A stretch of 64,000 nucleotides of DNA from Eledone cirrhosa. Taxonomy: Eukaryota. Made by a program: the position numbers and the translations under genes. This document shows, one piece after another, positions 10,059-63,846 of this stretch. The stretch spans positions 105,524,001 through 105,588,000 of the forward strand of contig OZ024745.1 of NCBI GenBank assembly GCA_964016885.1. The letters are read 5' to 3'. The number at the start of each line of letters is the position of its first letter. Positions within the stretch are counted from its first letter, which is position 1. The notes under the pieces are model-generated. The model did not search any database and was not told the DNA's origin. It was given only the letters and a program-made list of their open reading frames with translations.

Positions 10059-10306
10059 TAGTTATGTAATAAACAACATAAGGCAATTATTCCATTTACC
10101 AGTGGTTTCTTAAAAGCAAAAGATGTTGCTTTCAATCCTCAGAATGAAAAAATCCTGGTCTGTTTATTGAATTTGGATTTTAAAAAATCCCAATTCAATA
10201 AACGGACCAGGATTTTTTCATTCTGAGGATTGAAATCAACATCTTTTGCTTTTAAGAAACCACTGGTAAATGGAATAATTGCCTTATGTTGTTTATTACA
10301 TAACTA
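10059..10306. repeat. Near-perfect 248-bp palindrome adjacent to (TA)n
   Basis: Arms ~10059-10181 and 10184-10306 are reverse complements with few mismatches. Confidence 0.95.
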
Positions 10307-10756: not shown

Positions 10757-11188
10757 GTGGTTATAAACGTATATATGTGTCTGTATGCACACTTATAGGT
10801 ACATACATTATAAACATAAATGCTTGGGTCAGTATAAATAAATAAATATATATATATAAATGAAAATAGAGAAATTAATGTAAGCAAAAAACCTACAATA
10901 ATTCATATATATATATGTATAAAAGGAAAAAATGAAACGAAATTTCATTTCTCACTCTTAGTACGGCTGTTACTTAAATATAAGTATGTATACGTACATA
11001 CATATATGTATACAGACGCACAGTAGTATGTATATATATATACATACATGCACACATATATATATGTACGTATGGATTCACCGAACATTTATTATAATGC
11101 TCGGTGTGTTTGTAAACAAGCATCCTGAATTAAGCCGTACAGTGTCTAACAACCATCGTTGCTCATTTGTTCAACACTGACAAAGGAA

Positions 11189-11229
11189 CGCTGTACTAGT
11201 TTCAAGCTTATTAGCTATCGTCAGCAACG
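11189..11229 (-). ncRNA. Type I hammerhead ribozyme (retrozyme unit 1)
   Basis: Reverse complement reads CGTTG CTGACGA T AGCT AATA AGCT T GAA ACTAGT A CAGCG; GUA triplet. Confidence 0.85.
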
Positions 11230-11626
11230 TATACCTCCCTGCCATATGATTGAACGTCTGAAAGTATATACTTTCCTTATGCTTATGCATATTAACGGCT
11301 GAGCAGCCTAATTTGCATATCGAGTGAGTTAATCGGCCGGGGCACCGAAAACGATAAACGGAAAGAATGAAACGAAATTTCATTTCTCACTCTTAGTACG
11401 GCTGTTACTTAAATATAAGTATATATACGTACATACATATATGTATACAGACGCAGAGTAGTATGTATATATATATATTCATACATGCACACATACATAT
11501 ATGCACGTATGGATTCACCGAAGATTTATTATAATGTTCGGTGTGTTTGTAAACACAGCATCCCGAATTAAGCCGTACAGTGTCTAGCAACCATCGTTGC
11601 TCATTTGTTCAACACTGACAAAGGAA

Positions 11627-11667
11627 CGCTGTACTAGTTTCAAGCTTATTAGCTATCGTCAGCAACG
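11627..11667 (-). ncRNA. Type I hammerhead ribozyme (retrozyme unit 2)
   Basis: Same motif as 11189-11229. Confidence 0.85.
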
Positions 11668-11811
11668 TATACCTTCCTGCCAGATGATTGAACGTCTGAA
11701 AGTATATACTTTCGTTATACAAATTAACGGCTGAACAGCCTAATTTGCATATCGAGTGAGTTAATCGGCCGGGTCCCCGAAAACGACAAATGAGCAACGA
11801 TGGTTGCTAGA

Positions 11812-12112
11812 AAGTTTTCTGGAGTTATTAATATTAATTCAAAATATTAATAAATATAGACATTCAACGTAAACAAAATACATTTTATTATATATATTTC
11901 GAAGGTACTGTGCTGTTTTTTCAGTACGTCCCCATCAGATAAAATATATAAATTCAACCATCAGCACAGTTGAGGTATGTCATACATCAATTTATATATT
12001 TTATCTGATGAGGACGTACTGAAAAAACAGCACAGTACCTCCGAAATATATATAATAAAATATATTTTGATTACGTTGAATGTCTATATTATTCAATATT
12101 TCGAATTAATAT
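11812..12112. mobile_element. Fold-back PLE pseudo-LTR-like unit with two inverted HHRs
   Basis: Arms ~11828-11955 and 11989-12112; abuts (TA)n; related to 39778-39945. Confidence 0.7.
11995..12064 (+). ncRNA. Type I hammerhead ribozyme with long stem II
   Basis: 10-bp stem I TATATTTTAT/ATAAAATATA; CTGATGA; stem II GGAcGTACTG/CAGTACcTCC; GAA; palindrome ATATATAT; AUA triplet. The inverted copy at ~11880-11949 has CTGATGG. Confidence 0.85.
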
Positions 12113-12929: not shown

Positions 12930-13745
12930 TTTGTGTGTGTATGTGTGTGTATGAGAGATAATAAGTGGAGGTGTAAGCGCGCGTGTGTGTGTGTGTGTGT
13001 GTGTGTGCGTGTGCGTGTGTGTGTATCCAGATACCCGACGTCCACCACGAACCGTGCCAGAAAGAACAGAGGACACCCACCCGAGGCACTAACACCTGCT
13101 TCCTGAAGCTCCCACACTTCAGTGAGGAAACAACAACAGCCATCCGCGGAGCTATCAGACGAGAGGGACTAGATATCCAACTAGCCCACTCAGGACCTTC
13201 TCTACGCAGACGGCTAACCAAAAGACACTCCACCAGACATGACAGCCGCTGCAGACTAGCCAACTGCCCCATCAACGACACAGACCTATGCCACCAAGCT
13301 TACGTCGTATACAGATTAGAGTGCGACAAATGCAGCAACTTCTACGTAGGTAGCACCACCAGACCACTTCACATAAGAATAAAAGAACACCTCAATACTA
13401 ACGCTTCCTCATTTAAGAAAGACCTAGTGAAATGCAAAAACACCGACAAAAACATAACAGTTAGGATAGAAACTAAGGAAAGAAACCTCTGCAATCTTAG
13501 AATTAAGGAAGCACTAATTATAGAAAAAACACAACCACCAATCAATAATAGACTAGAACTCAACACCCAATTTATAACTTGATAGAGCACCTAGCCCCAT
13601 ACTTACACCCCCCCCTCTCACACAAGCACACGCACTCACACACGCACACACACACACGCTTACACCTCCACTTATTCTCTCTCTCACACACACACACATA
13701 CACACACATACACCCCGTACACATACATACATACTCACACGCACA
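12930..13745 (+). mobile_element. 5'-truncated Penelope-like element (GIY-YIG endonuclease end) with upstream inverted 3' segment
   Basis: ORF to 13582: CRLANCP...LC..AYVVYRLECDKC..FYVGSTTRPLHIRIKEH...EALII...PPINNRLE; 12933-13000 is an inverted copy of ~13640-13710. Confidence 0.85.

Positions 13746-19527: not shown

Positions 19528-19530
<3 letters not shown>
18686..19530. mobile_element. Fold-back PLE pseudo-LTR-like unit with ~270-bp inverted arms, each carrying an HHR
   Basis: 18686-18958 vs 19262-19530; ends directly in the giant TA tract. Confidence 0.75.
18729..18793 (-). ncRNA. Type I hammerhead ribozyme
   Basis: Reverse complement reads TATTTTGT CTGATGA AAG..ACCAT(8-nt loop)ATGGT..CTT GAA ATATGTAT A ATAAAATA; the plus-strand mate at 19424-19487 lacks the core C. 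Confidence 0.75.
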
Positions 19531-24118
<4,588 letters not shown>

Positions 24119-24120
<2 letters not shown>

Positions 24121-32019: not shown

Positions 32020-35000
32020 AAATAGGGAGAAAGAGACGATTATGAGGAAGAACAAATTTTTTTTTTCATTTTTTTTGTCTCTCTCTTTTTTCTGGGTTAG
32101 AAAATGATTAAAACGAAATGTTTTACTTTGTGTGAAGTGTTAAGGTATTAGTTGATTTATTTATTATTTAACAATGGCATTTATTTATCTATTTATATAT
32201 TTAATTATTGTCTATTACCGGTTTCTGCATTTATATGCATTATCAAATGATAGTGAAATGTATTAGTGTGGTGTCGCACATGTTAAACAGAAGGTGCAGA
32301 AAGAATAATGTTATATACAAACAAGGTTTAAGAAGTGAAAAGAAAAAAGAAAAAGGAAAAAAAAAACGTGCATAATGTGGAACGTAAAAAGTCAATGTGG
32401 AAGAAAAGTTAATGTTATTTTCAAGCACAGTCATTGAAGTTAAGCAGTTCAAAATGTGTTAATATCGCAAGAGTGTTTAGTTGAACGATGGTTCCGTGAA
32501 GGAGGCAAATGGTGGACTGTGGTTTGATATGATTTCCCTTTTTAGAGAGTTGATATGCAGGGGGAAGCAATTCTTGCTGGGTGATATTTAATTAATTTAA
32601 GAAAAAGGATTAGGTAGGGTGTGAGGGAGGTAACTCTTGTAAATATTTGATGGTTTGTTGCAGTTTTAGAAAGGTGCGAATTTCAGGGCATTGAGTACTG
32701 GTTGAAATTTATTAATGAAATGTGTTTCCTTATTGGTGCGTTGGATGAAAGTAGCGTTGTCTATGAATTTGTAAATGGGGAAAATTTTAAAGTTTGGATG
32801 TTGGTTGAGAGCACAATTGGCGATATGTTCACTAAATGCAATATTTCTGTATTCCTATATTTTAATTTGTGATTTGTGGACGGTCATACGTTGACGGAGG
32901 CTGTGTTTTGTCTGTCCTATATAGTGCTCTAGACAACCTGAGCAAGTCAAAACATAGATAAGGTTTTCAGATGCACATGTAAAGTTGTGTTTAACTGTGA
33001 AACGTTGTCCTTGTTTAAAATGGAATGTTGAACCTTCTATTAGATTTATGCATATGCCACAGTTGGGCCTTCCGCATTTTGTTACTGTAGGGTTTATTGG
33101 GAAGGTTTGTTGTATTTTGGCTTGTGTGAGGATGTTTTTTATGGATTTGGGTTGTCTTTTGCTCTTTATGATGTTGTGTGTTTGGAGGATATTGTTCATT
33201 CTTGGGTCTCTTTTTAGTTTGCGGTTCATTCCTCGGTTTGGGGTGTCTGAGTTCCTGGATGTCTAGTTTTAAGGCACGTTGGAATCCATTGGTGATTAGG
33301 GATGGTGGGTAGTTTCTGCTGATAAGTGTGTTTTTTTAATTTTTCTAGTCGTGTGTAGCATGTGTATTTATCTGAAACTATTGTACAGATCCTTCTGGCT
33401 AAGTTATAAGGAATTGCCATTTTGGTGTGTCTAGGGTGGCACGAGTTGAATGAAAGGTATTGTTTGGAGTCTGTGGGTTTGTAGTATATGTCTGTTTCTA
33501 TTTTGTTGCTTGTTTTCTTGATGAGGATGTCGAGGAAAGGGAGTTGTTCATGGCTGTAATCCATTGTGAATTGTAAGTTTGTGTTGAGTCTATTCAGAAG
33601 GGTTTTGAACTCAAACAGTCTATCTATACTTTCATGCCAGAGGATGAAGCAGTCGTCCAGATATCTCTTCCAGTTCTTTTCTATGTGTTGGTAGAAGTGG
33701 TTGCCGTATTTGTCTAGAACTTTGCGGTAGAGAATGGTTTCCAAATATCCCATGACAAAGTTGGCGTATGAGGGGGCCACTTTCGTGCCCATGGCAGTCC
33801 CAGATTTCTGTCTGTAGTATTTGGCATTGAATTCGAAGAAATTGTTTTACAAGATGAATTTGAGTCCCTCCAACACAAATTCTTTAGGGATGCGCTGTGG
33901 GAGTTCACTAGGGAAATTTTCCATCCAGAATTGTATTGCCTCTATACATAGGTTGTGTGAGATATTGGAATATAAATTGATGACATCAAAGGTTACTAGT
34001 AGGGTATGTTGGTTATTGAGTGTTGTTGGGAAGTGGTTGAGCATGTCAAGGTCGTCCCTTATGAAGCTTTTTATGTGTTTAGGAAAGGTTTAAGCAGAAT
34101 ATCTAGGAAGTTGCTTAGGCGGTGGGTTTCACATGTGGTGCCTGTTATTATGGGTCTTAATTTATACATCAGGAGGGGCTATATTGATGTAAACGTCTGC
34201 GGCTTGCTTGCAGGCCCTGCCTATTACTTCGCTTTCGTGTGTCTTGGGGATACCGTAGAAGAGGTTGGTTCTGCTTTTGAAATTGGTGATGTAGTTGTAT
34301 ACCTTGTCTGTAAGGCCTTCTTTGTAAAGGGTTGTTTAGGGATTTTAGGTTTCTCATTATTTTCTGTTGTGTGTAGTGTTGGGCCTTTTCATAATATATT
34401 TGGTTTTCTAGAGTTGAGAGTACTAGAGTTGTGTAATAATCTGTCTCCATAAGCACTACTGCACTCCCTTTATCTGCCTCTTTGATTGTTAGGGTTTTGT
34501 CGTTTGTTAGACTGTTAAGACCATTCCATTATCTTTTGCTTAGGTTTGGTTTTTGTTTATGTCTGTGTAGGTGGTGGTATGGGTAATTAGTAATGTGTTC
34601 CCAGAATTGATCGAGGAATTTATTCTTGCATTTTGGTGGGGTGTAGTTGCTTCTATTTCTGACTATTGAGTCATCCTCATTGTATTTGTTGTATAGTTGT
34701 TCGCTGAGTCTTAGTTTTCTACAGAATTCTGCAATATCTTCCTTCATTTCGGAGTAGTTTGGTTGTTGGGGAGTTGGTGTAAGTTTTAGACCTTTGGAGA
34801 GTATGTTAATTTGGTCTGTTATTAATTCTTTGGAGGTTAAATTGACAATTTTTATTGCATTTTGTGTCTCCTGTGTGTTTTGTGTTATCTTGTGATCCTG
34901 TGTCTGTGTGCTGTGTCTAAAAAATGATTACGGAAGTTGTGGTGGCTGTTGAAGTTTGGATGTCTCTTATAGTTGTATTGGTTTCTGCTGTTGTTGTAAG

Positions 35001-35161: not shown

Positions 35162-36550
35162 GACTACCCAAGCAAACACTTCAACCATCGATTAACTGTA
35201 CTAGACACAGAGCTCTGGTTAGAAACCATTAATAACAAAAAACAAATCCTCCATTCCCATTATGCAAAACCCATGACTTCCAAATATCTGATCCACCGAA
35301 ACTCAGCTGTTTCGGACCGAACCAAAATCAACATACTGATTGCGGACTTGATACGGGTGATGCGAAACGTGTCCCGCATGTGCAACCCCAAAGAACTAGA
35401 GAGACACATACAACACTTCATCCACCATATGCAGTTCTCTGGTTACAATCAGAGAGATAAAATCAGAATATATAGAGGAGCCAGAACCAAATTGGAAAAA
35501 ATGGTAAATAATGATACAAATGGGACCTGCCCCTTGTATAGGAGCAAATTTTGGAATAGAATAGAAAGAACTAGGAATAAGGTTAATAGAATAAACTCAT
35601 GGTATGATAGCAATACATACCAGAGTGTAATGTTCATCAATACAACCCCTAGAGGTGAATTAGCTTACAAATTTAGAAGGGCCCTAGATAAACATAAACT
35701 CAATATTAAGGTAGTAGAAAGACCAGGTATCTCCATAAAAACACTTATTAGCAATACATACCATTTTCAAAGATCTCCCTGTATAGATAAGAAATGTATA
35801 ATCTGTAAACTAAGCCCCCATATTAACTGTAAAACTAGAAATGTAGTATATAGCATAATATGTTCTGAAGGACAATGTAGAGATAAGAATACAGTGTACA
35901 TAGGTGAGGCAGCTTATAGTATAGGAGAACAGATAAATGAACACTGGCGAGAGCTTCACGATAGAAAAGAATCATCAATACTCCACCAACATGCTAAAAT
36001 AGAACATAAGGGTAAATTAGAGAACATAGAAATAAAAATATAATCTACACACAGAAAAGACGTAATGTTTAGACAAATCACAGAAGCAATAAACATAAAT
36101 AAACTATAACCAAAATTAAATAGAAGACATGAATGGAATAGCAACATCACAACTTACAATTAAGGACAACATGAAAACACATACGCACATAGAACAAACA
36201 ACCAACCAGTAACATGTAAATAAACAAATATAAACACACACAGACATCCGGATGTAACACATGCGCAAACTAAGCACACAACACACACAAAAACAAGATG
36301 GCGTAGGACAGAACAAAGGAGAGGCACAAAAACAAAGAAAAGAATCCCGATTCACTGAAGAGGTCACAGAATGTGTGACGAAAGAACTTTGACAATATAT
36401 GAACAACCGTCCGGTTGTGGAACCAACCATCCAACCGGAAATTTATAAATTCTTAAATTTATAAATTTAATTTATAATAAATTGGAGTGAAAGCAACTGG
36501 TGCGTGTGTTTCTTATTAGCAACATGACCCTCCCAAAGCATAACAATATA
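35162..36550 (+). mobile_element. 5'-truncated Penelope-like element, probably Naiad-like (RT thumb, GIY-YIG with CCHH, pseudo-LTR)
   Basis: DYPSKH..LTVLD..W..HYAKPMTS..SA..K; CIDKKCIIC; VVYSIICSEGQC..YIGE..HAKIEH; beyond a TAA stop RQITEA..LNRRHEW; HHR at 36352; ends in (TA)n. Confidence 0.85.
36352..36392 (+). ncRNA. Hammerhead motif in the pseudo-LTR of the Naiad-like PLE
   Basis: TCA CTGAAGA G GTCAC AGAATGT GTGAC GAA AG AA CT T TGA. Confidence 0.7.
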
Positions 36551-36774
36551 TATATATATATTGTTATACTTTAGGAGCGACATTCTGCCAATAAAAAACA
36601 CACGCACCTTTGCTTTGGTTTACCTTGTTTTACAGTTAATTTCTATGCTTAACCTTCAGACTATACATTTTCTATCAGTGACTGTAATCTTTACACTGTA
36701 GCTATGCTGGGGTACCTCAAATACATTTTTGAATATATTTTAAAATTTCGTACCGGCAACGTTTAAGGTATTTA

Positions 36775-39199: not shown

Positions 39200-39686
39200 A
39201 GCAGCAAGTTGTTTCTGATTATATGATGCCTGTGTGAGATGCGCGATGCTGCATGGTAGTGAGACATGGGCGGCAACTGCAGAGGATATGCGGTGGCTGG
39301 AGAGAAATGAAGCAAGCATGTCCCGTTGGATGTGCAATGTCAATGTGCGTGAAGGACCAAGCATGGACGAGTTGAGAAAGAAACTGGGTATAAGAGGGAT
39401 AAGTTGTGGTGTGCAGGAGAGAAGCCTGAGATGGTATGGACATGTGATGCACATGGAGGATGACCGATGGGTGAAGAAGTGCCAGTAAATCCCAGTGGAG
39501 GGAAGACACAGTACAGGTAGACCACGTAAAACATGGGCGGAGGTGGTGAGAGCAGACCTCAGATCGCTGAAACTCACCGAGGAGATGACGAAGGACCGTG
39601 ACAAGTGGAGAGATGGTGTGCTGAATAGGACCCATCCGACCCTTGCAAGCAGGGAAAAGCGGACGTAAAATGATGATGATGATGAT
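39200..39686 (+). mobile_element. RTE LINE 3' fragment
   Basis: MLHGSETWA...LRWYGHVMHMEDDRWVKKC..GRPRKTW; (TGA)n tail; a tail-only copy lies at ~7180-7216. Confidence 0.9.
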
Positions 39687-39777
39687 ATATATATATATAT
39701 TTAAAGGTTAAACAAGGTTCAATGAATAAATCAATGAATAAAGTTTTACAATAGATTAGAAGCTCTCCACAGTAATG

Positions 39778-39945
39778 GTTTTCCGGAGTTATTAATATTC
39801 ATTCAAAATATTAACAAATATAGACATTCGTGTGATCAAGTATATTTTATTATACATATTTCAGTACCTCTGACATATGTATAATAAAATATACTTGATC
39901 ACACGAATGTCTATATTTGTTAATATTTAGAATTAATATATAAAT
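39778..39945. mobile_element. Fold-back pseudo-LTR remnant (same family as 11812-12112)
   Basis: Palindrome centred at ~39867; retains only the HHR 3' half GAAATATGTATAATAAAATATA. Confidence 0.7.
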
Positions 39946-45799: not shown

Positions 45800-48700
45800 T
45801 CTATGTTCTTCTGGTTTTATAATTTCACAAATTTTTACCAATAGAGAAAGAGTCGGTTTCTAACATAGACACATGTTTCTAACATAGACACATGTTTCTA
45901 GCATAGACACATGGATTGTACTTGTAATTTCCTAACTAGTTGTGTTCTTTTTGTTCCTGAGAAGCCTAACTTCTCAAGATTTGTATTGAGGCAGTTACTA
46001 ACATACCCCAGTGCCCCAATAATCACAGGTATAAACCCGAAGGTGTAATCAGTGTGGAGTATCTGCAGATTTCTCATTAGTTCTGCATGAATAGTCTCCT
46101 TTTCGCTAATCTTTGATATATTGGCATCGGCATGGCAGTTAATTTCCACTACTGTGCATGCTTTCTTTCCCTGTCCCATATCATAATATCTGGTCTGTTA
46201 TGCCTGCATCTTATTGGGGTTTTTACTGGAACATTCCACCAGCACTCTTTCATATTATATATATGGATGTCTTCCACAATGTTGTAGCTTTTAATGTGTT
46301 TATTATAGGGGCTATCTTTTCTACGGATTGCATTGTACAGTGTTTTGGCCACTGCATCATACCTCATAGGTAGATAGTACCGCGATGACATCTTTGGACA
46401 GCTGCTGATGATATGAGTGACATCTTTGATGTTAATTCTGCAGAGTCTGCACTTGGTATCACATTTAGGTGTTTTGCCTGCATCCCTATCTCTTTTGTGA
46501 ATCAGGTATTTCGTGTTAATTTCCTGTTCCTGGATTGCAAAGGCGTATCCTTCAAAGTGGGAGCCAATATAGCGGTTGTTGGTTCAAGATACTTTCCTTA
46601 TCTATATTACTCTCACTCTGGAGCTTCCTGCCAACATATCCATGCATGATTTTTTGCTGATAAGCATGCAGTTTTTCATCCATGGATTCACTGCGATACT
46701 GCTGAGCGACTTCCTTGGGTGTGAGTTTTTGATTATAACACAGGGAATATCTCTCGAGGAGTTCCTTCCCAACTCTCATGATCTTATCTGTTTCATGCAG
46801 ATAGACTTGCTCGAGAGACAGGCTCCTGCGCTTCGAGGTTCGTAGATGTCGGAGGGATATGATGCGACATTCAAATGCTGTCTGGACTGATGTTAGGCCT
46901 CTGCCTTCCTGCTTACGTTTCAAGTAAAGGCAGTCTATGTCACTGTTGATGTGGACGTTTCCGGTGTTGTTTAGTATTTTTCGAGTTCTAACATCAACTG
47001 CTCGGATTTCGTCTATCATCCAATTGAGTATTCCAAACGTTGGTGTTAGGACAGGCACAACAAACACATTGTGGGCCACTGTTTTGTTTTGCGCAGAGAG
47101 TTCCGATGACAAAATCTTTCTTAATCGGGTGTAGTAGTCCCTGATTACGCGTTCCTTATTACAGATACCATTATAGGATATGTTCTCATCTATCCCCAGG
47201 TATCTGTAGCAGTCCTCATCAGATATCGGTGAAACAGTTAGGCCATTGATAATAATGTTGCTAGATTGGGTTGTTGTTTTTCCCCGCTTTACAGTCATGT
47301 ATGAGCATTTATCTTGGCCAAACTCCATTCCTATATCCTTTGAGAACGTTGTAACGAGGTCAAGATTTTTCTTCACCCCATCCATGTTCTTGCCATAGAG
47401 TTTCAGATCATCCACAAAGAAATTATGGGTTAGGTTCTTATTTCTGTCCTCCTGTATACTTCACATTTCTTGAGCAGAAAGGACAAGGAATTTAATGACA
47501 GGATAAATAATATCACAGAGAGACTGTCTCCCTGAAATATACACCTGCGAAATTTTATTTTATCAGTGAAAATAGAGTCCTCTTCTCTGTCTTTAACCTT
47601 AGGATAGTAGCCCAAGAAGAAGACAGCTTCTCTATGGCTCTGATAATAATGTCTGGGACTTTAGAAAGTTGGAGGGCCTCTATCATCGAAGAGTGGGGAA
47701 CAGAATCGAAAACTTTCCTGTAGTCCAGCCAGACTGTAGCCATATTCCTCCTAAATTGTCGCACCTCCGACATCGCAGTTTTGTTGATTAGGAGTTGTTC
47801 AGCACATCCCTAACCCCCTTTTTTCCAACTGCTTGTTCATCTGTGATGATGTTATTATTTTCACAGTGATCTTGGAGGAATAGGTTCATGCAGGCTGAAT
47901 ACTTCTTATACATCAGGTTCTGGCATGCAATGGGTCGGTAGTTTTTTGCCAAGTGGGTGTCTTTGTTCTTGGGGACCAGTAATGTTTGTGCTAATGTCAA
48001 CCATTCTGGTATAAGTGTATCTCCCTTAATAACCTGTTGGTAGAGGTCAGTAAGATACCTCCGATAGAATATCAGTTTTTGTACCAGTAGCCGACAATCA
48101 TCTCTCTTCCTGATGTTTTCTTATCTTGGAGTTTTCCTACTACAGTCTCAAGGGTACCCTCACATATTTGGTATGTTTTTGTTGTAGTGTAGGAGCAATA
48201 GTTCTTTCTGATTTTTTTGTAGCCACACACTGCATCTTGGTTGAAATTCTTCTTTTCACCCCATATTTTTCTCCAGAAGGAATCTATGTCTTTCTGGGAT
48301 GGGGCCTCAATGACACTTATTATTTTGACACATCTCTATAGACTGATGTTTGGTTTCGTCTGAATCTTTTATTAAGCAATTTTCTTTCATCTACTTTCTT
48401 CAGGTATCGGCGTTTTTCGCTAACAGCTCTCAATTCTTGTTTGAGGGTGATCAGCTTATATTGAAGAGTTCTGGTTCTACTGTTACCAAACATCGTCTCT
48501 ATTTTATTTTTCACTCTTTGTTGGTGAGGAGTGAGGTTTTTTGTGTTTGTTTGCATCTAAGGAGCATTGTCACATATTCTATGGTTTTTCGTAGGTCAGC
48601 AATTTTTTTTTCTAATTTAGTTATATATGATGGTATTTTTGGTGGTGTTTTGTTCTTGTTAATATCTCTGCTATCACCAAGATAATGCTTTACTGCCGTT

Positions 48701-49945
48701 GCTAAGGCATATAAACAGGCGTTTATTTGCCAAAATGTTGGGGTTTTTACCCGTCGTAAATATTCATCCCCTATTTCGTCAATAACACGTAATATATCAT
48801 TATTTGTTTTTTGTATTGGCAGTATCGGTAGAGGGTCGGATGCCATGCTTTGAAGCATAGAGTTACCTCCCTGTATGATCTGAGTTCAAATCCCGCCGAG
48901 GTTAACTTTGCCTTTCATCCTTCCGGGGTCGATAGAATAAAGTACCAGTAATGCATTGGGTAATTGCTGGCCTTGTGCCAAATGTAGAAACAATTATTTG
49001 TTTTTTTTTAAATTAAATATTGTCGTTTTAATACGTTCAGCAAGAGAGATATTTATACATGAATTAATTTCTCTCTGGAAGATTTCGTTGAGGGATATTT
49101 TCAATTGTTTATACTTTTGATTATTATCATTATCGATAGTATTTTCCACAATAGTCGAGGTATACTCGGATGGTACACGTGGTGTCAAATTTGTTCGATT
49201 ATTATTATAATTTCTTCCATTATTATTATTATCTATAGTGTTTTCCCCAGCATTCGAGGTAGACTTAGATGGTACACGCGGTGTCAAGTTTCTTAGAGGA
49301 CTAGTTGTTTCAAGGCACTGTACGACCTGGCTGCTAGGAAGTCTAGTAGCATGGCGACCTGTAGCACGTGTTGTTGATCCCATGTTTGTTGTGGGGCATT
49401 TACAATTAATAATATTTATCTTATTTTTACGTTCAACAAACGTCGCTTGTTGGCGTAATTGTTTCGCTGTGAAGTGATTTAGCTCTGGCTGCATTTCGTC
49501 CCAGTGTAGCTTCATTCTGTTCATATAGCCAATGGAGGGATTGTTTTTTTGGGGGGCCATTTTATAACAATTAAATAAATCATCATTAATTTCGCAACTC
49601 CAAGAGAAATGTGATTTATAATTTCGGTTTCTTCTGTAGCTACAACTGAATAAATTTTGTTTACCTTTCTCGTTTTTCTTCGGTATTCCACTGATATTGT
49701 TGTAGTTGATGTTGTGTTCAGCCATTTTGTTTGTAGAAAATACTTTTAAAATGAATTATGTATTTAGTCGGATATCTCTACGAATTCGAATATAAGGTGT
49801 CATCAGTAGATATAGTTAGAAGAATAATCAGTTATTCAGCATGACTGTAGTTGTGGCATTACTGTCGGAGATAGTATTCATCTTAAATTTAATAAATAGT
49901 CTCCCACGCCAAGATATGTGTCTGATCGCGTTGACTGTGTATTGT
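45800..49945 (-). mobile_element. Decayed R4/Dong-like non-LTR retrotransposon (RT plus restriction-like endonuclease)
   Basis: KNYRPIAC, WLDYRKVFDSVPH, IFQGDSLS, FVDDLKLY, YRYLG, CCHC (CRLC..THIISSC), HNRPDIMIWD; (TATG)n on both flanks. Confidence 0.9.
48813..48992 (+). mobile_element. SINE family A nested in the R4-like ORF
   Basis: 14-bp TSD ATTATTTGTTTTTT (48799-48812, 48993-49006). Confidence 0.92.
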
Positions 49946-54456: not shown

Positions 54457-55213
<757 letters not shown>

Positions 55214-56565
55214 ATATGTTATGATTTTACAAGGTGAAGATAGATTGAGGGTAATGAGTAAACAAGTATTATAGAGTGTATAATGCCCTTTAAAGTAAGG
55301 TAGATGGGTATATTTTAAAGAGGTGTATGTATATGTGCCTTTGAGAAAAGATTCTAAATTGATAAAGAATTGAATATTAACTGTATACTTTGTGAAAAGT
55401 TCTAAATAGACGCACAGATTTGTTTTCTATCTGCCTGCATAAATTCCATAGAACTTTTCACAAAGTATACAGTTAATATTCAATTCTTTATCAATTTAGA
55501 ATCTTTTCTCAAAGGCACATATACATACACCTCTTTAAAATATACCCATCTACCTTACTTTAAAGGGCATTATACACTCTATAATACTTGTTTACTCATT
55601 ACCATCATTCTATCTTCACCTTGTAAAATCATAACATATACAATATTCATCCGCAATCATTATTATTTTTTCTCTCTATCATAAATCTTTTTAATCTCAA
55701 TTTCATCCTTAATTTATTATTTTTTTCTCCCCATCAACGAACTCATTATTAATACATATTAACTCTTTATTCGCATATATTATCAATTCAACCAATATAC
55801 AAACTTTAACTTCACATTATTTTTCTCAAATCCTTCTACACACAAACCTTAATAATTTTTCTCTTCGTTAATTTTGAAATTGCCACAATATATACATTTC
55901 TTTTTTTGACGTTAGAATATTCATCCACAATTATTATTTTTTTCTCTCTATCTTCATACATAATTTCCCTTCGTTAATTTTCAAATTCCTTTAATTTATA
56001 CATTATCTTCCAACGGTTCCCAACCTCTCTATGTTAAAACAATATATCTTTTTCTCAGTTATAAAAACTATCTATTTCTCTCTATCACCCATCTCTCCCT
56101 CTCCACCTTCACTCTCATCTCCTCCCCCTTTTTTTCATCACCCCCTCCCTAAATAAAATATTTTTTCCTCGCACATATCCTCCCTTCGTTAATTTTCAAA
56201 ATTTTTAATTTATACAGTATCTTCCAACGGTTTTCAACCTCTCTATGTAAAAAATATATCTCCTCTCAGTTATAAAAACTATCTCTTTCTCTCTATCACC
56301 CATCTCTCCCTCTCATCTCCTTCCCTTTTCATCCTTTCTAACCCCCCCTCTCTAAATAAAATATTTTTTCCCAATATCACACATCAATCTAAAACCACTT
56401 TTCATATGTTGATTTAAAACTGCACTATCCACAAGTGTTTTTTAGCCTTCATATCATGTTCTCCTGTTTTATCTGATGAAAACACAAATATTATTGCATG
56501 ATGATGTTTATTTTTGAAATGCGCATAATAAAATACATGGAACTCCTTTAACCATCTTTTGATCT

Positions 56566-56566
<1 letters not shown>
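55214..56566 (+). mobile_element. PLE-type 3' segment with 5' fold-back (190-bp arms) and terminal HHR
   Basis: 55214-55404 vs 55449-55639 inverted; ~195-bp direct repeats at ~55965 and 56180; HHR at 56465; then a TA tract. Confidence 0.65.
56465..56535 (+). ncRNA. Type I hammerhead ribozyme with G-U-rich long stem II
   Basis: TGTTTTAT CTGATGA AAA..AAATATTATT GCAT GATGATGTTT..TTT GAA ATGCGCAT A ATAAAATA. Confidence 0.8.
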
Positions 56567-56630
<64 letters not shown>

Positions 56631-57715: not shown

Positions 57716-57787
57716 CAGTAATAATAATAAATTTGAAGACTATAATCCAAAGAGGGCTCGATAAGGATAAATATATATATATATATA

Positions 57788-57858
<71 letters not shown>

Positions 57859-57859
57859 A

Positions 57860-58114
57860 TATTTCGTTTCTGAATTTGTTTAGCAAGATTCTTTGTCTGA
57901 AAACGTGTGTTGAATTCGATATTGTTATACTTTGGGAGGGTCATGTTGCCAATAAGAAACACACGCACCAGTGCTTTCACTTCAATTTATTATAATACAT
58001 TTATAAATTTAGGAATTTATAAAGTTCCTGTTGGTTGGTTGGTTCCACAACCAGATGGATGTTTATATATTGTCAAAGTTCTTTCGTCACACATTCTGTG
58101 ACCTCTTCAGAGAC
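57860..58114 (-). mobile_element. Solo pseudo-LTR of the Naiad-like PLE, with HHR at 58072-58114
   Basis: Reverse complement of 63563-63800 and 36350-36550. Confidence 0.8.
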
Positions 58115-58625
58115 TGGCAGGAAGGTATACATTGCTGACGATAGCTCATAAGCTTGAAACTAGTACAGCGTTCCTTTGTCAGTGTTGAACAAACGAGTAA
58201 CAATGGTTGCTAGACACTACGGCTTAATACGGGATGTTTGTTTACAAACACACCGAGCATTATCATAAATGTTCGGTGAATCCATACGTACATATATATA
58301 TGTCTGCATGTATGTATATATATATACATACATACTACTGTACGTCTGTATACATATATGTATGTGTACATACTTATATTTAAGTAACAGCCGTACTAAG
58401 AGTGGGAAATGAAATTTCGTTTCATTTTTTCCGTTTATCGTTTTCGGTGCACCCGGCCGATTAATCCACTCGATATGCAAATTGGGCTACTCAGCCGTTA
58501 ATATGCATAAGGTAAGTATATACGTTCAACAATCTGGCATATATATATATGTGTGCATGTATGTATATATATACATACTACTGTACGTCTGTATACATAT
58601 ATGTATGTACGTGTACATACTCATA
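58115..58625 (+). mobile_element. Candidate retrozyme (~1.2 units), HHR at 58130-58170
   Basis: CATTG CTGACGA T AGCT CATA AGCT T GAA ACTAGT A CAGCG; octamer at 58475-58482. Confidence 0.75.
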
Positions 58626-58647
58626 TTTATGTATATATAAATATATA

Positions 58648-58716
<69 letters not shown>

Positions 58717-63280: not shown

Positions 63281-63328
<48 letters not shown>

Positions 63329-63798
63329 ATGCTTTGGGAGTGTCATGATGCCAATAAGAAACAAACACACCAGTTGCTTTCACTCCAATTTATTATAAAT
63401 AAAATTTATACATTTAAGAATTTATAAATATCCGGTTGGTTGGTTGGTTCCATAACCGGACTGTTGTTCATATATTGTCAAAGTTCTTTCGTCACACATT
63501 CTGTGACCTCTTCAGTGACTTCAGAACAAAGGAGAGGCGCAAAAGAAAGAAAAGAATCCCCAGTCACTGAAGAGGTCACAGGATATGTGACGAAAGAACT
63601 TTGACAATATATGAACAACCGTCTGGTTATGGAACCAACCAACCAACCGGAAATTTATAAATTTAATTTATAATAAATTGGAGTGAAAAAACTGGTGCGT
63701 GTGTTTCTTATTGGCGACATGACCCTCCCAAAGCATAACAATATCGGTTTCAACACACGTTTTCAGATAAAGAATCGTGCTAAACAAATTCAGAAACG

Positions 63799-63800
<2 letters not shown>
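63003..63800. mobile_element. Inverted pseudo-LTR cluster of the Naiad-like PLE; HHRs at 63477-63519 (-) and 63563-63605 (+)
   Basis: GTCA CTGAAGA G GTCAC..GTGAC GAA AGAACT T TGAC in both orientations; copies face each other across TA tracts. Confidence 0.82.

Positions 63801-63846
<46 letters not shown>

Follow-up and report, generated by a model that had tools for sequence, protein, structure and literature searches.

The window, the whole 64-kb stretch of DNA analysed here, contains three composite insertions in which sequence of a retrozyme family (RZ) adjoins, at its 5' end, Penelope-type element (PLE) sequence of the families F1, X and P. The joints lie at 11812, 55214 and 58114, respectively (Table 1), and in all three composites the opposite ends are in or beside TA tracts, just as the original prediction had them.

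Table 1. Features of the three composite insertions, in positions of the window
Feature	Positions	Strand
RZ array of about two units, with tail at 10919	10919-11790	-
Inverted RZ stub, 26 nt, unit positions 75-100, non-canonical 3' end	11786-11811	+
F1 head-to-head pair with a predicted hammerhead in each arm, cores at 11938 (minus) and 12005 (plus)	11812-12112	
RZ array, older subfamily (79% to the reference unit), end without tail	54598-55191	-
Inverted RZ stub, about 18 nt	55197-55214	+
Hammerhead-free snap-back duplicating the initial 190 nt of the X arm with 3 differences	55214-55404	-
3' part of PLE family X: last GIY-YIG codons, 3' region, predicted hammerhead core at 56473	55427-56570	+
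(TA)n tract, left target of the 58114 composite	57767-57862	
3' end of PLE family P, with a tail of ~59 nt (about 57864-57919)	57864-58117	-
Minimal P hammerhead core (predicted), stem I damaged in this copy	58104-58110	-
Microhomology of 4 nt where P and RZ meet head to head	58114-58117	
RZ arm: one full 420-nt unit, internal deletion at ~58539, end without tail	58114-58633	+
Predicted type I hammerhead of RZ with its core at 58135-58141; cut expected after unit position 51	58116-58179	+
(TA)n tract, right target	58623-58712	

The RZ unit is 420 nt long, has a GC content of 37%, is non-coding and is repeated in tandem in arrays of one to more than four units; no ORF of 120 aa is found across the RZ copies of the window. 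The source genome, which is 3.0 Gb in size and rich in (TA)n, has 9,874 copies of an exact 34-nt RZ motif and 0 copies of the reversed control motif. By its unit structure, RZ is a tandem non-LTR retrozyme with a predicted type I hammerhead. In this hammerhead, stem I has 5 plus 4 pairs, stem II has four pairs over a U-U, and stem III is a single, palindromic pair, with the predicted cut after unit position 51. The hammerhead calls, for RZ and its partners alike, are based on motif, fold and covariation. Across 25 RZ variants 93% of the cells are paired, a covariation check on related copies with few independent changes, and the central pair of stem I is U-G, G-U or A-U in different subfamilies, so that both sides change. 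The minimum free energy fold of RZ is no better than that of shuffled sequences. An Rfam scan of the 64-kb window returns microsatellite noise and no hammerhead family among the best 150 matches listed, and a scan of 57950-58280 gives no hammerhead match.

The metazoan non-LTR retrozymes described in the accessible part of PMC7229834 are, like RZ, short non-coding tandems with GC below 45% and one type I hammerhead per unit. Their units measure ~170-400 nt, so that RZ is just above this range, and RZ differs from them in the U-U at the base of stem II. That part of the paper describes no fixed ends, tail or inverted arms, whereas RZ has all three.

At 58114, the P part is 5'-truncated just upstream of its own hammerhead, while other P copies continue beyond 58117. 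The stem I change next to the core in this copy is absent from most P copies. The two predicted hammerheads do sit back to back, as had been claimed, with their cores 24 nt and their stem I arms about 14-15 nt apart. The joint is clean, that is, without an inverted stub; both ends of the composite are in (TA)n and the tails are complementary, P having one and RZ none.

Family P has one ORF, read in broken copies, in which the RT is followed by a C-terminal GIY-YIG domain. This ORF has RT motifs with YVDD, a Cys-rich linker and a YIGET endonuclease. Atlas neighbours of the P protein have HTH_animal, GIY-YIG and RVT_1 in 13-98% of members, and Pfam gives no match on the P piece of the window. 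A minimal hammerhead motif, with a stem II of 6 bp and a stem III of 1 bp, is present in the 106 P copies read. P is thus an endonuclease-positive PLE with a predicted C-terminal GIY-YIG domain. The partner at 58114 had been called Naiad-like; this label is rejected for P, since the endonuclease of Naiads is N-terminal and canonical hammerheads are absent from them (in the consulted portion of PMC8557442), whereas in both P and X the GIY-YIG is C-terminal and a hammerhead motif is present. Naiads do share with the elements described here (TA)n targeting and a tandem plus inverted structure. Among the clades covered there, Neptune, Nematis and Hydra fit the linker Cys motif and the (TA)n target of P. 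The arms of P often stop at P reference positions 1425-1445, ~60 nt upstream of the hammerhead, and a short transcript of the terminal repeat may begin in this zone.

The joints at 11812 and 55214 have a different build. At 11811/11812 the predicted sequence of inverted stub and hammerhead-bearing fold-back is present as described. The inner arm of the F1 pair keeps about 17 nt of its ~95-nt tail and the outer arm is tail-less; the hammerhead of the right arm folds with a z of -3.9, and in the left core A9 is replaced by G. Since the 3' ends of F1 point outward, the stub and F1 meet here with their 3' ends. F1 has no upstream ORF in the nine loci read, and it behaves as a PLE end, with hammerhead and tail. 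At 55213/55214 the stub and the joint had been correctly seen, but the fold-back at 55214-55639 that was said to bear a hammerhead has none, the motif being at 56473 instead. X has a C-terminal GIY-YIG ORF before its 3' region in five loci, and this ORF ends at the point that forms the centre of the fold-back at 55.4 kb. The X arm ends without a tail at the TA tract at 56566, so that both outer ends of the 55214 composite are tail-less, while the outer ends of the 11812 composite are complementary. The tails of F1 and X resemble that of a further hammerhead family, Z, and belong to a group without complementarity to RZ. With moderate confidence, the 11812 and 55214 joints each represent two head-to-head insertions in one TA region plus an intervening deletion.

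Several other elements occur in the window. An RT plus GIY-YIG fragment of another PLE family lies at 32855-33846 (minus), a P copy with ORF and fold-back at 35162-36616 and a GIY-YIG piece at 12977-13582. Head-to-head hammerhead fold-backs are found at 10100-10260 (a further family), 39778-39941 (an F1 copy) and 63321-63803 (a P pair). A broken LINE with an RT domain occupies 46149-49755 (minus), and a 3' fragment with an ATG-repeat tail, which is taken here to be RTE-like, lies at about 39200-39690. A (TA)-rich array of 4.6 kb extends over 19528-24120.

The copies of RZ have a characteristic anatomy. Among 112 RZ arms of at least 150 nt, 51 stop near unit position 324 and 47 near unit position 265, so that 98 of the 112 end at either of two fixed 3' sites, which are 59 nt apart; almost all of these arms run into (TA)n. 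The 5' ends, in contrast to the 3' ends, are scattered over the unit. The 59-nt segment between the two sites constitutes the tail, and head-to-head RZ pairs with both ends canonical have exactly one tail in 31 of 34 cases (p=4e-7), 21 pairs with one end cut or unreadable being excluded. Within the position-ordered sample described below the count is 24 of 25; two pairs of the top set were missed by the script, one of them complementary and one not. Pairs of P follow the same one-tail rule in 17 of 17 cases, where the first arm was picked for having a tail, as do those of X in eight of eight. At the centre of the RZ pairs the arms overlap by a few bases or carry short fillers. Any target-site duplication would be masked, as the ends are within (TA)n. 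The RZ arms cross the hammerhead cut site, and since one of 36 unselected partner arms starts near it, a stop of copying at the cut is rejected. In a same-template comparison, 16 of 41 RZ pairs have the partner arm as one of the best matches (median identity 96.7%). Adjacent units in RZ arrays are identical in 0 of 25 cases and best matches in 6 of 25; rolling on one circle may or may not have taken place, age having blurred the signal. In one RZ pair (L027) both ends are tail-less, the arms are identical and the same foreign flank is present on either side; this is likely a DNA snap-back duplication extending into the flank.

Endonuclease-positive PLE insertions, as far as they are covered by the available text of PMC8557442, PMC3846280 and PMC11167929, resemble those of RZ in 5' truncation, a partial tandem, an inverted 5' copy, a tail at one end, a (TA)n target and microhomology joints. 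Their tails are 30-40 nt long, compared with 59 nt in RZ. The carrier here is a non-coding retrozyme and the two arms come from two different RNAs, which distinguishes the present case from those PLE units. Since the RZ insertions share the PLE end pattern, the enzyme of endonuclease-positive PLEs likely copies RZ. The claim that PLEs mobilise this retrozyme is therefore supported by the fixed 3' ends and the one-tail rule, and not by the fusions from which it was originally drawn.

It is very improbable that RZ is instead the terminal repeat of an autonomous PLE, or that it owes its spread to a LINE or to DNA-level amplification. Published Xenopus retrozymes are close to PLE terminal repeats in the part of bioRxiv 10.64898/2026.07.22.740005 consulted, which fits the first of these possibilities, but a PLE ORF upstream in the RZ orientation is found in none of 50 RZ flanks searched with the protein set of the families described here. 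Nor is any sequence likeness detected between RZ and the 3' ends of P, X, Z and F1; against the P 3' region, 30 of 200 shuffles score equally well. As to a LINE, fragments of such elements adjoin RZ on the 5' side at five of 79 loci (four by tblastn and one by eye), but RZ has no poly(A) or simple tail, and ends at two sites are a PLE trait. The summed contig depth in organism B is high over P, and over RZ it is ~100x lower than in organism A; depth is not copy number, and the contrast hints at a recent expansion of RZ.

The length of the tail looks specific for each family. It is 58-60 nt in P and 59 nt in RZ, 80-95 nt in Z, X, F1 and Y, and about 32, 39 and 67 nt in other families; the comparison covers a part of the PLE families of the genome. 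The clusters E5, E13, E17 and E14/E23 represent at least four more TA-ending families whose two fixed ends have a spacing of 32-80 nt. Tail length could be used to sort elements by enzyme, and the equal lengths in P and RZ may be a chance coincidence.

The original prediction held that every retrozyme locus is fused at its 5' end to Penelope-type sequence. This is true of the three loci of the window and untrue of the genome. The first 100 RZ motif places by position on contig C1 correspond to 85 loci, or 79 after merging of six overlaps. An inverted RZ copy is the 5' partner in 36 of these; among the remaining 43, 18 reach a TA run within 50 nt and 16 are unclassified. Inverted RZ stubs occur at seven of the 79 loci, followed by TA (3), LINE (1) or other sequence (3). 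A foreign Penelope-type 3' part is head to head with RZ at four of the 79: one partner is a PLE endonuclease ORF (L059), one is the tail of family Z (L145) and two belong to tail-bearing, TA-ending families (L055 and L134). P is the 5' partner at none of the 79, and at 29 other P loci the partner is P in 17 cases, F1 in one and RZ in none. One P locus (L070) has P with a partial tail head to head with tail-less F1, a two-family joint between PLEs. The three PLE-fused loci out of three in the window are a small-sample effect of a TA-rich region.

The enrichment of PLE sequence on the 5' side of RZ that a general fusion implies is not seen for P either. There are 23 head-to-head P/RZ neighbours at 20-450 nt, compared with at least 19.7 expected under uniform placement; for Z the numbers are 50 and at least 36. 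Direct joints with RZ per motif copy are about equal for the two families, 15 per 27,772 copies of the P motif and about 24 per 51,029 copies of the Z motif, and thus there is no excess pointing to P.

These figures bear on the possibility that the PLE machinery moves RZ while all three joints of the window are independent insertions brought together by microhomology deletion. The lack of a P-RZ excess over chance and the equal joint rates of P and Z favour it, as does the heavy clustering of the families in TA tracts, where 68 same-orientation P/RZ neighbours are found. At one locus (L198), P nested in the internal TA run of RZ plus a deletion mimics the picture of a composite. Two separate events also yield complementarity in about 44% of cases, as judged from P/RZ neighbours with TA or a complete self pair between them (17 of 39). 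What makes this explanation unlikely for the set as a whole is the composition of the clean P-RZ joints, which are complementary more often than both controls.

The P/RZ neighbours were gathered with four gapped patterns, which gave 23, 68 (30 read), 34 and 19 matches, and were classed by eye. One complex locus (L186) and one with an unreadable end (L222) are excluded. Where both ends of a direct joint can be read, the tails are complementary in 21 of 30 cases (p=0.02). The clean joints are complementary in 13 of 16 cases (p=0.01), in both directions, and in 11 of 14 when the joint of the window and one nested case are left out; the stub-bearing joints are near chance with eight of 14. The division into clean and stub-bearing joints is post hoc, having been made after the first set was seen. 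The direct Z-RZ joints, for which all 50 Z/RZ matches were read, are complementary in six of 19 cases, with loci having an unreadable far end excluded and one triplicated locus counted once. By Fisher's test, p is 0.016 for clean versus separated joints, 0.05 for all direct versus separated joints and 0.006 for clean P-RZ versus Z-RZ joints. These counts suggest that some direct P-RZ joints are single two-primer events.

Composite insertions had been attributed to template switching of the PLE reverse transcriptase. A single RT that switches templates would give same-orientation chimeras, unlike 58114, which is head to head. When 30 of the 68 same-orientation P-to-RZ neighbours were read, 27 turned out to be a normal P 3' end followed by a TA run; in the other three P is shortened and joined directly, and two of these are stubs of head-to-head composites. 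Some features do accord with switching between retrozyme and PLE RNA. The inner partner arms at 11812 and 55214 share the orientation of the RZ array, so that a jump along one strand, in the order RZ, stub and partner, is possible there, and the outer ends at 11812 are complementary. At L186 (positions 1700-2950 of the locus, on contig C1 near 70.93 Mb), the two arms of a one-tailed P pair break off at an identical P position, and sense RZ sequence continues from each arm, so that the P strands run on into RZ; this could be the capture of an antisense RZ template, either cDNA or minus-strand RNA. Against switching stand not only 58114 and the TA-separated neighbours but also the scarcity of foreign PLE-type 5' partners (4/79), the Z-type tails of F1 and X together with the low complementarity of Z-RZ joints (6/19), and the two tail-less ends at 55214. 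As a general rule for RZ insertion it is refuted, and as the normal route it has very little probability.

The reading preferred here, to which a probability of roughly 60% is assigned, is that RZ is copied by the protein of an endonuclease-positive PLE and that 58114 is a rare single insertion of P together with RZ. Taken on its own, the 58114 composite is a single insertion event of two RNAs with a chance of about two in three. In the RAD-seq and short-contig records compared, where repeats dominate, none spans the joint or an empty target site. Since its arms are head to head, two primers are needed. The PLE protein, possibly dimeric, would nick both strands at a (TA)n site. On the bound RNA, one nick would start reverse transcription from the outer (tail) site and the second nick from the inner one. 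Because RZ arms continue across the hammerhead cut, an uncut multimer or a circle would serve as template; the RZ arrays would be inserted ready-made. The two cDNAs would then pair head to head over a few bases and complete each other's second strand, a switch from RNA onto the cDNA of the partner at the centre being the likely last step. Both templates would usually be RZ; rarely, one would be P RNA, which would give a P arm with a tail and an RZ arm without, as at 58114. A more specific proposal, that a PLE dimer with one PLE RNA and one retrozyme RNA lies behind most clean P-RZ joints and that P is the enzyme donor of RZ, is tentative and somewhat less probable than its opposite.

The individual steps have counterparts in known systems. 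The one PLE protein studied in vitro, a predicted dimer, cuts both strands and extends them, starts inside the RNA at two sites bounding the tail, and prefers RNA that is uncut (PMC11167929). In the portion of PMC3846280 available, head-to-head PLE pairs are explained by self-priming on an antisense template, a model that would not account for two-family pairs. Twin priming and bridges of L1, as presented in the consulted part of bioRxiv 10.1101/2024.08.27.596794, likewise involve two primers and the joining of 5' cDNA ends by microcomplementarity, and in human L1 two synchronous truncated insertions can be bridged head to head. The second primers of L1 start at random internal places, whereas both starts in RZ are fixed and coordinated, and the two-element bridges of L1 link distant sites, unlike the RZ composites.

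Mobilisation of retrozymes by PLEs is already proposed in print, while the insertion anatomy is not found there. PLEs are put forward as a candidate mobiliser in the part of Cervera and de la Pena 2020 (PMC7229834) consulted, and bioRxiv 10.64898/2026.07.22.740005, to the extent of its available text, argues for PLE mobilisation from co-occurrence and from terminal-repeat phylogeny and pLTR homology. That preprint suggests local growth of arrays, whereas the RZ arrays are read here as inserted ready-made, and it uses pLTR homology, whereas RZ is without homology to the PLE ends tested. In a literature search with subscription papers and Repbase reports mostly outside its range, neither a tail rule in retrozyme insertions nor head-to-head pairs of PLE and retrozyme were found.

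The one-tail rule provides footprint evidence from the RZ insertions themselves, in addition to the co-occurrence and terminal-repeat homology on which the published support is based, and it predicts the exact cDNA start sites on RZ RNA. If the two-family pairs are single events, they would favour two primers on sense RNAs over antisense self-priming as the origin of head-to-head repeats in PLEs. If P is indeed the enzyme donor, the tail rule would name P as the mobiliser of RZ by the 59-nt spacing alone, without any shared sequence, and it would offer a general way of matching retrozymes to their mobilisers from genome sequence.
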